Positions 2,914 through 6,736 are shown, counted from the first letter of the stretch. The stretch: 6,736 nt of DNA from Candidatus Heimdallarchaeota archaeon (GCA_030614005.1 JAUWKS010000108.1:1-6736), one strand, 5' to 3'. The notes: a model not told the origin generated them from the letters alone. Numbers and translations: made by a program.

Positions 2914-5900
2914 CTATCTTTTCCTCCATCTAATTAGATTAATTATCGTTCGATTCTTTAATCGTCGTTCGGTTCGTTCCATTTGTTGATCCCATTGTTT
3001 TTCTTTCTTCTGAACCATTCTATACAATCGTTCTCTTTTACGCTCTTGTTTTCTCTCTCGAGATTTCAGTCTTCTTTCTACTCTTTGCGACCATTTTACT
3101 TCACGCAAATTTTTCGTTCTTTTTCTTTTAATTTGCTCAATATTGGCATATATTAGTCGCTTCATATTGGGTGTGATAGCTGAAATATCAACGTCAAAAA
3201 CTAGGAAAGGCGTGTTATGCTTATAGTAAATGGGTTTCAAAATTGCTTGAGATACTTTATATGGCAGACAATTAAAGGGACCGGTTAATATTAGAGAATC
3301 ATATGTTGAATCATCCAATATTTCTAATCCTTTGCCAATTGTTGGAATTGCTTCACCAAAGATTAAATTAGAGATATAAGGATCAGAGTGATTGAGAAGC
3401 TGCCCTAAATCATTTTGTTCAGCATATAACAAACCAGTTCTCTTAAATCGTCTTCTCACTCTTCTTTCAATCAAAGGCAGAATCTTTAGTACTATCTTAG
3501 ACATAAGGAAATTTCTTGATGCTTTATCCCAAGGTGTAAGAAAAGCTCTCAATTGAGTAAAGAATTTCGTTGGATCTTTGTGCCATTTTTTCGCAATCTC
3601 ATAATATCCATTGAATTTAGTACTATACAAACTTAATTCATATAAATCCGAGGATTTAACGATGATACCATTTTCAGTATAAATATCACGCAACTCTTTC
3701 AAAAAGAAAGAACTAAATCGCACAAAGAAATCACCAGTAACCAATACTTTTGGATAATTTATCGGTGAGTCTTTTCTAGGTATTTTTCTAATATTTCTAA
3801 TGAGTTTTGTTACACCCCTTCTGTAGGTCTTTTTGGATGTAATACTATTCAAGAATCCATCCCAATGTTCCTGAAGCAATTCTAAACTATCAGAATCACC
3901 CACAACTCGGAGAGAACTTTCAATTTCACCAATAATATCACCAATAACAATTCCCGTTGGGAAAAATTGTAAAACATCAATCAAATTTGTACCTAAGAAT
4001 TTTGTTAAGTAATCCAACCTGTAAATGAAAACGTTTTCTAGTTTATTACTTTCCAAGAATTGTTCAATGTAATGATAATAGCTATAAACAGCACAAGGTG
4101 AGCCACCACGAATCATATACATACCAATTATTTCACCTGGTTTTCTATTCTCAACAAGAGTTAGTATTTGACCTAAAACAACAGGGAGTGGTATGCATTC
4201 TTTCCCGGAGCTGCATCTTAATCCTTTAATCGGGTAGTCTAGTAGGATGTCAGTAGCAACACCCATTTTGAAGCCAAACATAGTCATCATTTTTCCACCT
4301 ACATCAACATGGTATCTTGAAAAAGTTGGTGAATGGAGTGTGACTCTAGGATCCTTAATATCTATGGATTTTCCTTGCGAAGTTATTACAACTGTTTTTC
4401 CTTGTCTACGTTTTATTTGCGCAACTTGAAATGGTGCTTCTTGAACTTTTTTCTTACTTTCTTTGAAGTTTTTAACAATTTCTAGGAAGGCTTCTAATCG
4501 TGTTTGGATACCAGCATCTGCTGTGTGTGCATCCAATTCTAGAAAAAGATAAGGTTTAGAAGTCATCTCAGAGCGTACATAATTCTGAATAAAAGCATCG
4601 ATAGTGCAACTGAAACTATTAATGAAGAGAATGTAGAGATTTTCATTTTTTAGTGCAAGATCAATTGCCATTTTGACATAATTAGCAAAATACCAAGGAA
4701 TATCAGCCACATCAGTCTTTTCAAGAAAATCAAAAGGTATGACTGTAATACCCATACTTGAAAGCTTCTTGGGAATATTCATAGAGGTTTCAGATGGGAA
4801 GGCATTATAGCTTCTTCCAACTAATATGATGCCGATTTCATCAGTTCCTTTCAATTTATCAATTGTTTCTTGACCCAATTGTAGGAACTGTTTTTCAACT
4901 TCCAATTGTGCTTCAACAGCCTTTTCATAGGCTTGCTTAGCTCGTTTCTTCGTATGATGCAATTCATCCATAGCCATGGTAATTAATGAATGTTCTTTGG
5001 AATAACCAAGTGAGAAATCAAGTGTTGGTTTTAAAATAGTAATATCTTCGAACGCTTGTGAAATAATATATGAACTTGCTTGAGTTATGGGGCAGAAAGT
5101 TGAATCCCTCCAAGTATCTACTTTGGTTAGGTTAACAACATGGGGGAGAAATATCGTTTTTACTTTCCTCTTTGTAAGATCCAACACAGCTCCATGCAAT
5201 ATCTGTATTGGATAACAAAATGGTGCATTTGCCATCAGTTCCTTATCATCATCTATTCCAGAAAGAATGACTTGATAACCCAGTTCTTTTAAGAAAGTAG
5301 AATACATTGGATACAAACTGTGAGTTAATAATGCTCGAGGAATACCAATTGCTTTCTTACCTCTCAAAATTTTCACATTATTATTAATATTATTATTTGC
5401 TTCTCCAAGCATAAGTTCATTTCTCTTCTGAACAAGATCTTCTTTTTCAGCTATTTTCTCTGATCCTTTCCACTGGTGCTCGTATTTTGAGCAACTCCCT
5501 CCAAATAGGAAGCGTCGACCACCAACTTCATATCTTTCTATTTTACAATAATTTTTGCAAGATTTACAGGTAATACTTCCGAGATGTTTTAGCTCTTCCT
5601 TGATCAGACTTTCAAGAGAAGTTGATTTTGGCATCTCTGTTATTTCATGTTGCTCGAATTTAATTTTCGCTATTAAAGCAATACCAAATGCTCCAACCAA
5701 TTCAGGATTTGGAGGTATAATGATTTGTTTTCCAGTGGTTTGTGCGAAAGCATAGCCTATAGAGTGATTTTTAGCAACACCTCCCTGAAAGAAAATCTTC
5801 TTTCCTACTTGTCTTGCTCCCTTAACTTTATTCAAATAATTATCAACAATTGAATAGACCAATCCAGCAATGATGTTTTCTTTGCCATAATCTTCTTGCA

Positions 5901-6736
5901 TAGCTGTGCGAATATCAGTATTAATGAAAGCCGCACAATCAGCTTTGAACCTAACTGGTTGTTTAGCCTCAATTGCAGTTTTAGAAATATCAAAAACAGA
6001 GATACCCAAATCGCCTTTTGCACTTTCTTCCAGAAATGAACCGGTACCAGCTGAGCAAGTAGCATTCATTGCATAATCAACAGGAACACCGTTCTGTAGA
6101 AGCATATATTTGGAGTCTTGTCCACCAATTTCAAAGATGGTATCGACTTCGGGATCATAAAAGACTGCTCCCTGGGAATGAGCCGAAATCTCGTTATAAA
6201 TTGCAGGAGTTCCTAAATAAGCACCAACTATTGATCTTCCTGAACCTGTAACTCCAACTAAAGAAACTTTCTGATTACCAACTTGAGAAATAATTTCAGT
6301 AAGGCAATTCTTAGTTGCACTAATTGGATTACCACTTGTTCTTCCATAATAAGAAGCAACTACACTTGAGTCAGAAGGATCAACCAACACTGCTTTAGTT
6401 GTCGTAGAACCCACATCAACACCTAAATGAAAAATGGTATTTTTCTTGAAATTCTTCTTATTCTCTATAGGATCTATAATTGTTACTTGTTTTCCGAAAT
6501 CTGCTAAGGGGAGATTTGTTGTGAAGCTCTTAGTAATGTTTAACTCGATTTCTTGGTTAACAGGATTATCACGAACCAAAAGGGCTGTTCCATAAGCTTC
6601 GAAAACAGAACTGACTTCTTTTATTACAATATTAACTTTAGGTAATTCGTCTCGCAGTATTTTGATGAAGGCTTCATTTAATGAAACACCACCGATAACT
6701 AACATACGTTTGACATCAACACGAGATTGTACGACC
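2914..6736 (-). CDS. Fused acyl-CoA dehydratase activase / 2-hydroxyacyl-CoA dehydratase-like Fe-S enzyme (tandem BadF/BcrAD-type ATPase + DUF2229-like domain + second dehydratase-like domain); PlsA-PlsR/Ger-type architecture; 5'-partial
   Basis: The frame stays open to the window edge (VVQSRVDVKR-MLVIGGVSLN). GGVSLN..FEAYGTAL is the end of a first ASKHA domain. The second activase domain (~6432-5668) has GVDVGSTTTK, VTGSGR, NEISAH, EIGGQDSK, MNATCSAGTGSFLEE, DCAAF, FQGGVAKN and GAFGIAL. The linker has CKSCKNYC..GGSC (5568-5491). Domain 3 (~5352-4471) has IGIPRAL, FCYP, FCP, GRSYN, FSC.ID and ELDAH..DAGIQTRLEAF. Domain 4 (~4347-3136) has GKECIP, SPC, GDFFVR, GEAI and GPFNCLP. Confidence 0.93.
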   Translation of the reverse strand, partial: VVQSRVDVKRMLVIGGVSLNEAFIKILRDELPKVNIVIKEVSSVFEAYGTALLVRDNPVNQEIELNITKSFTTNLPLADFGKQVTIIDPIENKKNFKKNTIFHLGVDVGSTTTKAVLVDPSDSSVVASYYGRTSGNPISATKNCLTEIISQVGNQKVSLVGVTGSGRSIVGAYLGTPAIYNEISAHSQGAVFYDPEVDTIFEIGGQDSKYMLLQNGVPVDYAMNATCSAGTGSFLEESAKGDLGISVFDISKTAIEAKQPVRFKADCAAFINTDIRTAMQEDYGKENIIAGLVYSIVDNYLNKVKGARQVGKKIFFQGGVAKNHSIGYAFAQTTGKQIIIPPNPELVGAFGIALIAKIKFEQHEITEMPKSTSLESLIKEELKHLGSITCKSCKNYCKIERYEVGGRRFLFGGSCSKYEHQWKGSEKIAEKEDLVQKRNELMLGEANNNINNNVKILRGKKAIGIPRALLTHSLYPMYSTFLKELGYQVILSGIDDDKELMANAPFCYPIQILHGAVLDLTKRKVKTIFLPHVVNLTKVDTWRDSTFCPITQASSYIISQAFEDITILKPTLDFSLGYSKEHSLITMAMDELHHTKKRAKQAYEKAVEAQLEVEKQFLQLGQETIDKLKGTDEIGIILVGRSYNAFPSETSMNIPKKLSSMGITVIPFDFLEKTDVADIPWYFANYVKMAIDLALKNENLYILFINSFSCTIDAFIQNYVRSEMTSKPYLFLELDAHTADAGIQTRLEAFLEIVKNFKESKKKVQEAPFQVAQIKRRQGKTVVITSQGKSIDIKDPRVTLHSPTFSRYHVDVGGKMMTMFGFKMGVATDILLDYPIKGLRCSSGKECIPLPVVLGQILTLVENRKPGEIIGMYMIRGGSPCAVYSYYHYIEQFLESNKLENVFIYRLDYLTKFLGTNLIDVLQFFPTGIVIGDIIGEIESSLRVVGDSDSLELLQEHWDGFLNSITSKKTYRRGVTKLIRNIRKIPRKDSPINYPKVLVTGDFFVRFSSFFLKELRDIYTENGIIVKSSDLYELSLYSTKFNGYYEIAKKWHKDPTKFFTQLRAFLTPWDKASRNFLMSKIVLKILPLIERRVRRRFKRTGLLYAEQNDLGQLLNHSDPYISNLIFGEAIPTIGKGLEILDDSTYDSLILTGPFNCLPYKVSQAILKPIYYKHNTPFLVFDVDISAITPNMKRLIYANIEQIKRKRTKNLREVKWSQRVERRLKSRERKQERKRERLYRMVQKKEKQWDQQMERTERRLKNRTIINLIRWRKR
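5377..5397 (-). repeat. (AAT)3-ATT-(AAT)3 trinucleotide microsatellite encoding NNNINNN in an interdomain linker
   Basis: The plus strand reads ATTATTATT-AAT-ATTATTATT. It corresponds to aa 437-443 of the track translation, between the Cys linker and the IGIPRAL motif. Confidence 0.6.

Follow-up and report, generated by a model that had tools for sequence, protein, structure and literature searches.

A putative single-chain PlsA/Ger-family radical reductase from a Heimdall-type Asgard archaeon

Glycerol ester reductase (Ger) was defined, and its conserved BBD architecture described, by Sahonero-Canavesi et al. (Sci Adv 2022, PMC13159169), who obtained 1-O-alkylglycerols on anaerobic expression in Escherichia coli of the enzymes from Thermotoga maritima (Tmari_0479) and Desulfatibacillum alkenivorans (SHJ90043). 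The carbonyl on which Ger acts is that of the sn-1 (weakly the sn-2) phospholipid ester, and the product is an alkyl ether. Related to Ger are the plasmalogen synthases, encoded as a pair in Clostridium perfringens (PlsA/PlsR, Q8XL48/Q8XL47) and as a fused PlsA in Enterococcus faecalis (Q835P9), Listeria, and Lactococcus; active plsA/plsR orthologues have been reported for Listeria (PMC9702350). Here, we describe a gene of this kind on a contig of a Candidatus Heimdallarchaeota archaeon (contig C61; JAUWKS010000108.1:1-6736 of assembly GCA_030614005.1), which in its entirety constitutes the 6,736-bp stretch analyzed, referred to below as the window. The gene occupies 2914..6735 of the minus strand, is truncated at its 5' end, and has the single-chain layout activase 1, activase 2, Cys4 linker, reductase domain 1, reductase domain 2 (Act1-Act2-Cys4-Red1-Red2). 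Like PlsA/PlsR, its product belongs to the radical enzymes related to benzoyl-CoA reductase (BCR) and 2-hydroxyacyl-CoA dehydratase (HAD). It shares with Ger a single chain in which the BBD part is followed by a second, diverged reductase domain, and a host from anoxic habitats (marine sediment and cold seep).

Ger homologues have already been described in Lokiarchaeota (including Promethearchaeum syntrophicum), Heimdallarchaeota, Methanosarcinales, Methanomicrobiales, and DPANN, and the implications for the lipid divide and for eukaryogenesis were discussed in the same work (PMC13159169). The novelty claimed in the original prediction for such an enzyme in an archaeon was thus overstated, given that a 2022 publication already covered both the Asgard homologues and what they mean for the lipid divide, and the window opens no new question, as the idea is already contained in Sahonero-Canavesi et al. 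What it adds to the question of Asgard function is a modest amount of supporting context, of which the new points are the apparent grouping of the Asgard proteins, as a clade of their own, with Ger rather than with PlsA, a degenerate Act1 site common to Asgard, Desulfatibacillum-type, and Nitrospira-like proteins, co-occurrence with a megasynthase, and the exception to that co-occurrence represented by P. syntrophicum MK-D1. Should an Asgard enzyme reduce fatty-acyl esters to ethers, ether lipids of the bacterial, non-isoprenoid style would be made by some of the archaea closest to eukaryotes, which would bear on the lipid divide and on the origin of the eukaryotic membrane.

Domain architecture and cluster cysteines

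The gene, as read from the list of open reading frames (ORFs) and its translation, runs uninterrupted for 1273 codons to a stop at 2914-2916, and no indel was found within it in the contigs of four metagenome runs. This single minus-strand frame agrees with the original prediction, which had placed all the elements in one frame. Because the window is the whole contig, the frame lacks 5' closure and the gene runs off the contig end at 6735, leaving ~171 to 174 N-terminal residues beyond it. The alignment to the nearest relative (P0002, 1444 aa, 93% identity) begins at P0002 residue 175. A tblastn search with a full-length orthologue as the query found no missing 5' piece elsewhere in the assembly; that the missing part exists in nature follows from a contig of run X1, which extends 1346 nt beyond window base 6736.

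Act1 is represented in the window by its C-terminal remnant (residues 1 to ~95; 6451..6735, minus strand). The two cluster cysteines and the ATP motif of this domain fall in the missing part, and P0002, which carries two PF01869 (BcrAD_BadFG) stretches, has at the corresponding domain Cys99, Cys137, and Cys141, kept in 100 to 101 of 102 homologues. Act2 is complete (residues 104 to 356; 5668..6426, minus strand) and matches the BcrAD_BadFG/HgdC-type ATPases both in Pfam (PF01869, 2.2e-41, 142.6 bits against a cut-off of 31.5) and in TIGR00241 (7e-51, 173 bits against a cut-off of 125). Its phosphate motif, GVDVGSTTTK, is canonical, its cluster cysteines are Cys227 (6055-6057) and Cys267 (5935-5937), and it matches the solved activators HadI (4eht, 2.6e-31) and HgdC (1hux, 1.5e-28) in the PDB; judged by these matches, Act2 has an HgdC-type fold. 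Among NCBIfam models, only those for activase domains matched the window protein, and none specific to PlsA/Ger did.

Red1 (residues ~440 to 765; 4441..5418, minus strand), delimited by Pfam, the AlphaFold model, and structure alignment, consists of a DUF2229 part (PF09989, residues 463 to 670, 4e-52) and an HGD-D-like end. The match of the latter to HGD-D (PF06050) remained below the cut-off, at 20.8 bits versus 28.4, and covered 66 residues only (688 to 753). The cysteine triad of Red1 comprises Cys507 (5215-5217), Cys548 (5092-5094), and Cys710 (4606-4608). Red2 (residues 769 to 1190; 3166..4431, minus strand) had no Pfam match; profile-profile comparison (hhalign), modeling, and structure matches mark it as a second, diverged version of the Red1 fold, whose triad consists of Cys847 (4195-4197), Cys881 (4093-4095), and Cys1156 (3268-3270). 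The two domains align by hhalign with an E value of 2.6e-4, pairing Cys507 with Cys847 and Cys548 with Cys881.

A sequence-profile search of residues 440 to 1190 against the PDB (24-sequence profile) returned nothing significant (best E value, 0.08), so a comparison at the level of folds was needed. The AlphaFold model of these residues reached a predicted local distance difference test (pLDDT) score of 86, and its top Foldseek matches were MbdO/N, BzdNO, HadBC, and DCCP. The Red1 model (first 320 residues) aligned to HadC (3o3n_B) with Z 15.7 over 277 residues (VIA-align) and to the HadBC, BzdNO, DCCP, and Mbd proteins in general with Z 12.7 to 15.7. Red2, modeled alone (pLDDT 90), had eight best matches that are without exception core subunits from the HadBC, Mbd, Bzd, or DCCP systems (Z 8.4 to 9.8 over 248 to 275 residues), whereas unrelated structures reached at most Z 6.7 over ~85 residues. 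Both reductase domains, as modeled, have the benzoyl-CoA-reductase/2-hydroxyacyl-CoA-dehydratase fold. The anatomy given in the original prediction (the end of one activase, a full second activase, and two dehydratase-like domains) is thereby shown to be correct, and its eight cysteine positions (residues 227, 267, 507, 548, 710, 847, 881, and 1156) are each a Cys codon, invariant among the 102 full-length homologues.

A further element, not mentioned in that prediction, lies between Act2 and Red1. This Cys4 linker, CxxCxxxC-x17-C (Cys390, Cys393, Cys397, and Cys415; 5491..5568, minus strand), is invariant in the 102 homologues and was also found in Nitrospira-like and Brocadiia proteins, in the PlsA of Listeria and Fusobacterium, in the Desulfatibacillum type, where the first spacer is longer, and in a split paralogue encoded in the same genome; a Paraclostridium protein was the sole one compared that lacks it. 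From its sequence, the linker is probably an extra metal site, either Fe-S or Zn. Together with the eight cysteines above, it brings the set to 12, which recurs throughout the family and is seen in the PlsA references as well as in the split paralogue and the Desulfatibacillum type. The broad PlsA/Ger cysteine set (2 + 2 in the activase pair, Cys4, and 3 + 3 in the reductase domains) is therefore all in the window save the two Act1 cysteines, which are present in P0002.

These features place the window protein close to, and at the same time apart from, the systems HgdC/HgdAB, HadI/HadBC, BcrABCD, MbdONPQ, BzdNOPQ, and DCCP/DCCP-R. It resembles them in the activase (1e-28 to 1e-31 to HgdC and HadI), in the core-subunit fold (Z 15.7 and 9.8 for the two domains), and, with respect to 2-hydroxyacyl-CoA dehydratases and benzoyl-CoA reductases, in the logic of an ATP-driven low-potential electron. 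Those systems, however, have separate subunits with a homodimeric activator and use CoA thioester substrates, whereas the window enzyme is one chain, has the additional Cys4 linker, and has a reductase part recognizable at the fold level only.

The C terminus is formed by a polybasic tail of ~70 residues (~1204 to 1273, with 30 K/R and 9 D/E; 2917..3126, minus strand), delimited by alignment. The tail is confined to one Heimdall subclade (P0001 to P0005, P0015, and P0019) and is absent from the Candidatus Heimdallarchaeum aukensis, P. syntrophicum, Nitrospira-like, Desulfatibacillum-type, and PlsA proteins that were examined; the Desulfatibacillum type has instead a conserved ...FPQ...LE.F.LQA.R.H end. 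Membrane binding and nucleic-acid binding are both possibilities for the tail.

Position within the PlsA/Ger family

The BBD arrangement is two PF01869 domains followed by PF09989. The window contains the tail of the first, the full second, and the PF09989 domain, and P0002 contains all three; we regard membership of the window gene in this PlsA/Ger family as close to certain. The family assignment of the original prediction thus holds, on the grounds of the Act1-Act2-Red1-Red2 architecture and all the cluster cysteines. The family comprises 1153 representatives (50% identity) at E < 1e-30, collected with residues 1 to 1190 as the query. Two unrooted trees were built, one with FastTree (141 rows) and one with IQ-TREE (70 rows, 1353 columns, LG+G4, with support by the Shimodaira-Hasegawa-like approximate likelihood ratio test [SH-aLRT]), neither including the Ger of T. 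maritima. The PlsA references were the sole Listeria monocytogenes homologue (fused, 1475 aa) and the split pair of Fusobacterium (975 and 404 aa). A scan of genome contigs around a Desulfobacterales representative covered 80 loci, including one from a metagenome-assembled genome (MAG) of Desulfatibacillum sp.

The window protein falls inside a monophyletic clade of 13 Asgard-named sequences (SH-aLRT 100), in agreement with FastTree. This clade groups, with support of 100, with a Nitrospira-like bacterial clade and a second clade that holds Heimdall- and Kariarchaeaceae-named sequences, and the grouping is joined by two Thermodesulfobacteriota representatives and the Desulfatibacillum-type clade in a superclade, again with support of 100. 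Outside this superclade are the Listeria and Fusobacterium PlsA proteins, on a separate long branch, and a large clade B (Paraclostridium, Brocadiia, and Desulfurispirillum). Full-length identities were 44% to the Nitrospira-like proteins, 32 to 34% to the Desulfatibacillum type (~1390 residues, ~700 bits), and 25% to Listeria PlsA (336 bits).

The Desulfatibacillum sp. protein, which served as a stand-in for a tested Ger, matched P0002 in BLASTP at 704 bits (E value 0), the alignment spanning 1395 residues with 32% identity; Sahonero-Canavesi et al. collected Ger homologues at E ≤ 1e-50 and coverage ≥30% (PMC13159169). It has 1458 aa and 159.1 kDa, and its type is present in all 16 of the Desulfatibacillaceae genomes searched. 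In D. alkenivorans, the active Ger has 159 kDa and the inactive paralogue Ger2 153 kDa (PMC11150832). The size match and the ubiquity of the type in Desulfatibacillaceae make the Desulfatibacillum-type clade the probable Ger clade. Compared in this way, the window protein and the Ger side have in common the cluster cysteines, the Cys4 linker, a degenerate Act1 ATP motif, and the superclade; they differ in the identity of 32 to 34%, in the separate Asgard clade nearest to the Nitrospira-like and second mixed clades, and in the archaeal host. By their sequences, the Asgard proteins are on what is probably the Ger side of the family and not on the PlsA side.

The Act1 phosphate motif, a discrete character, agrees with this placement. 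It was read from orthologues 79% identical and below, the Act1 N terminus of the window gene itself being outside the window. In the Asgard orthologues, it has the form G-[IV]-N-[IV]-G-S-[IV]-S-[IV]-N (e.g., GINIGSVSVN) against the canonical G-x-D-x-G-S-T-x-x-K, and it is also degenerate in the Nitrospira-like (GVNIGALTVK) and Desulfatibacillum-type (GICLGASTVS) proteins. In PlsA, on the contrary, Act1 is canonical (GLDVGSTTAK), and the Listeria and Fusobacterium references have the canonical motif in both activase domains.

These observations bear on the possibility that the enzyme is a true plasmalogen synthase of the PlsA-PlsR type, stopping at the vinyl ether. Such a reading can draw on the four-domain layout and the 12 cysteines, which are the same in Listeria and Fusobacterium PlsA(/PlsR), and on the suggestion that Ger chemistry itself may go through a plasmalogen intermediate (PMC8788747). 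Nevertheless, the PlsA references stand apart as a long-branched clade that the superclade (SH-aLRT 100) excludes, their identity is only 25%, and their Act1 ATP motif is canonical, unlike that of the Asgard orthologues, so we consider a plasmalogen synthase improbable. The original prediction had spoken of a PlsA-PlsR/Ger-type enzyme; the grouping with the Desulfatibacillum type points towards the Ger half of that name, and the PlsA-PlsR half does not hold, given the identity, the superclade, and the Act1 motif.

The family is also present in archaea outside the Asgard clade. Homologues in a Nanoarchaeota MAG and a Methanosarcinales MAG (L076 and L086) are sisters nested among bacterial proteins of the Desulfobacterales-type clade, a long way from the Asgard sequences, and this position indicates that archaea hold the family through at least two separate histories.

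Substrate and lipid context

We propose that the Heimdall-type host makes from this gene a self-contained PlsA/Ger-family radical reductase powered by ATP. By analogy with the biochemistry of HgdC and HadI, the fused activase domains would share one [4Fe-4S] cluster, held by two cysteines from each, and the pair would accept an electron from reduced ferredoxin or flavodoxin, with ATP hydrolysis driving that electron to a very low potential. The electron would next reach Red1 and Red2, perhaps through the Cys4 site of the linker, and arrive at their 3-Cys [4Fe-4S] clusters, at which the substrate carbonyl may bind, as in the HadBC and BCR cores. By homology to Ger, the enzyme would most likely act on a fatty-acyl glycerol(phospho)lipid, reducing its ester carbonyl to an alkyl (or alk-1-enyl) ether, with acyl chains supplied by a megasynthase resembling fatty-acid synthase (FAS) or taken from the environment via DegV carriers.

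The genome contains several genes that make this role plausible, namely a megasynthase, 19 paralogues of the fatty-acid-binding DegV, PlsY-like genes, and a split paralogue of the window gene, to which the co-occurrence described below is added. The megasynthase is a FAS/polyketide synthase (PKS)-like type I protein of 3576 aa with NMO-type ER, KS, AT, ACP, KR, and PPTase domains (G000:C71:157320-169710, equivalent to L115:5321-17711, minus strand), and it lies directly downstream of a gene for a 532-aa carboxyltransferase. The split paralogue is a cluster encoding two DUF2229 proteins (403 and 379 aa) and a 376-aa activase (G000:C103:14136-21446, equivalent to L011:5136-12446, minus strand), in a row with a PLAT-domain gene, a DegV gene, a PlsY-like gene, and a 389-aa ORF. 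The original prediction had pointed to glycerol-3-phosphate dehydrogenase, acyltransferase, and fatty-acid synthesis genes as the context to look for, and this context was found in part: six PlsY-family genes and the FAS-like megasynthase are present, and PlsC, GpsA, and PlsX had no match. PlsY and PlsC homologues in Asgard genomes have been published before (PMC6431249, PMC13400652).

Distribution was assessed across 151 Asgard genomes, namely an even sample of 150 and the source genome. A strong match to the window gene was found in the source genome and 14 others, and one more genome had only a distant type (31% identity). The megasynthase was present in 22 of the other 150 genomes, and the window gene had a strong match in 14 of these 22 holders versus 0 of the 128 non-holders. 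The co-occurring genomes belong to the Heimdall class and, separately, to family f26. DegV, for its part, is almost confined in this sample to the Heimdall class, with 9 to 15 copies in most genomes of family f2.

Several observations weigh against a lipid ester-to-ether role. The identity to the nearest probable Ger is only ~33%, and that clade was recognized as Ger by size and ubiquity and not by a tested sequence; moreover, close similarity is no guarantee of activity, as the inactive Ger2 of D. alkenivorans illustrates (PMC11150832). PlsC (PF01553), GpsA, PlsX, FakA (Dak2), and PcrB-type geranylgeranylglyceryl phosphate synthase had no match in the genome, which is 90% complete, and the six PlsY-family genes mostly lack the canonical motif 3. 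The co-occurrence is based on few independent lineages, that is, one Heimdall class plus family f26, and the genome of MK-D1, which is outside the sample, has the gene and no match to the megasynthase; only archaeal lipids are reported for MK-D1, as cited in PMC13400652. Furthermore, no operon partner is shared across the seven orthologue loci and neighborhoods are not conserved, and the P. syntrophicum orthologue faces two genes for CoA-transferase subunits (A/B). Since P. syntrophicum, the only cultured carrier among those examined, has the gene without a megasynthase match, it is both a counterexample and a tractable test organism. Weighing these points with those in favor, we give the lipid ester-to-ether function, as read from sequence comparisons, even chances or slightly less.

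A competing explanation keeps the family and changes the substrate, which would then be an acyl thioester (acyl-CoA or acyl-acyl carrier protein) or a soluble carbonyl in fermentative or fatty-acid metabolism. The locus in P. syntrophicum speaks for it (CP042905.2, L112:4161-14089): the orthologue is 148 bp downstream of a row of same-strand genes for a thiolase, a 199-aa ORF, an acyl-CoA dehydrogenase, and a MaoC protein, besides the adjacent CoA-transferase genes. However, such acyl-CoA surroundings were found at one of the seven orthologue loci and not beside the other six, and they are themselves a fatty-acid context. The solved fold relatives HadBC, BzdNO, and MbdON all use CoA thioesters, but the reductase part of the window protein is DUF2229 rather than a bona fide HGD-D, as the subthreshold Pfam score and the weak PDB profile match given above indicate. 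Only a handful of the 1153 representatives are characterized, and Ger2 gave no ether lipids (PMC11150832); on the other hand, the assayed fused members considered here (PlsA of C. perfringens, Enterococcus, and Lactococcus, and Ger of T. maritima and D. alkenivorans) are not known to use anything other than lipid esters. Finally, the unmatched PlsC, GpsA, PlsX, and FakA would fit a non-lipid substrate, and the co-occurrence of the gene with the megasynthase in the sampled genomes speaks against it. Taken together, another substrate is a real but less probable alternative to the lipid ester.

Within the lipid ester reading, a more specific version is a native non-isoprenoid ether-lipid pathway, in which acyl chains from the megasynthase would be loaded by DegV and PlsY-like proteins on glycerol phosphate and then reduced by the Ger-like enzyme to alkyl ethers. 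The glycerol phosphate could be glycerol-1-phosphate (G1P), since bacterial PlsY accepts G1P. Such a pathway, which we hold to be rather unlikely as a whole, would be complete and would equip relatives of the ancestor of eukaryotes with "hybrid" lipids bearing fatty-alkyl ethers.

Host genome and neighboring genes

The source genome is a Heimdall-type Asgard MAG of 3.62 Mb in 126 contigs, with 33.5% GC and an estimated completeness of 90%. The stretch is carried by marine-sediment and cold-seep metagenomes of at least three studies, and no RNA data are listed among the sequencing runs that hold it. The possibility that a bacterial contig was mis-binned into an archaeal MAG has to be considered, as the contig is short (6.7 kb), lacks archaeal marker genes, and encodes a member of a family found mostly in bacteria. 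Against it, the GC content of the window (30 to 37%) fits that of the genome, and the named proteins among the ~50 best matches are all Asgard (Heimdall-, Loki-, Thor-, Gerd-, and Kariarchaeia), in line with the separate clade formed by the Asgard sequences. In addition, the local gene order recurs on a 35-kb contig from a related Heimdall MAG (L010), and H. aukensis (P0039, 62% full-length identity) and P. syntrophicum MK-D1 (P0047, 55% full-length identity) each carry an orthologue in a closed chromosome, that of H. aukensis near the genes for ribosomal proteins S19 and S26e. Mis-binning is thus very unlikely, and the archaeal host of the original prediction is confirmed by these nearest relatives and closed genomes. 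The two orthologues share the Asgard clade and the domains of the window protein and are annotated as "acyl-CoA dehydratase activase"; they differ from it in having no polybasic tail, in their neighborhoods, and, for MK-D1, in the missing megasynthase match.

Directly downstream of the reductase gene, at 1848-2726 on the minus strand, is an ORF for a multi-pass membrane protein of 292 aa without a Pfam family. It was considered as a partner and rejected, for it has no counterpart beside more distant orthologues and is absent from the contigs of runs X2 and X3. Contigs from two cold-seep runs link position 1797 to position 2868 through 31 different letters. As the ORF is missing from some populations, it is not tied to the reductase gene.

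Further along the same strand, at 625-1191, lies a gene for a YdjM-family membrane protein of 188 aa (PF04307, 3e-7), and the related Heimdall MAG (L010) shows the same arrangement of genes. At the opposite end of the window from the reductase gene, positions 1-104 show a summed contig depth raised about ten-fold (in run X1, 81.7 versus ~8), and base 104 is the point where many contigs part ways; a repeated element seems to form this end of the contig.

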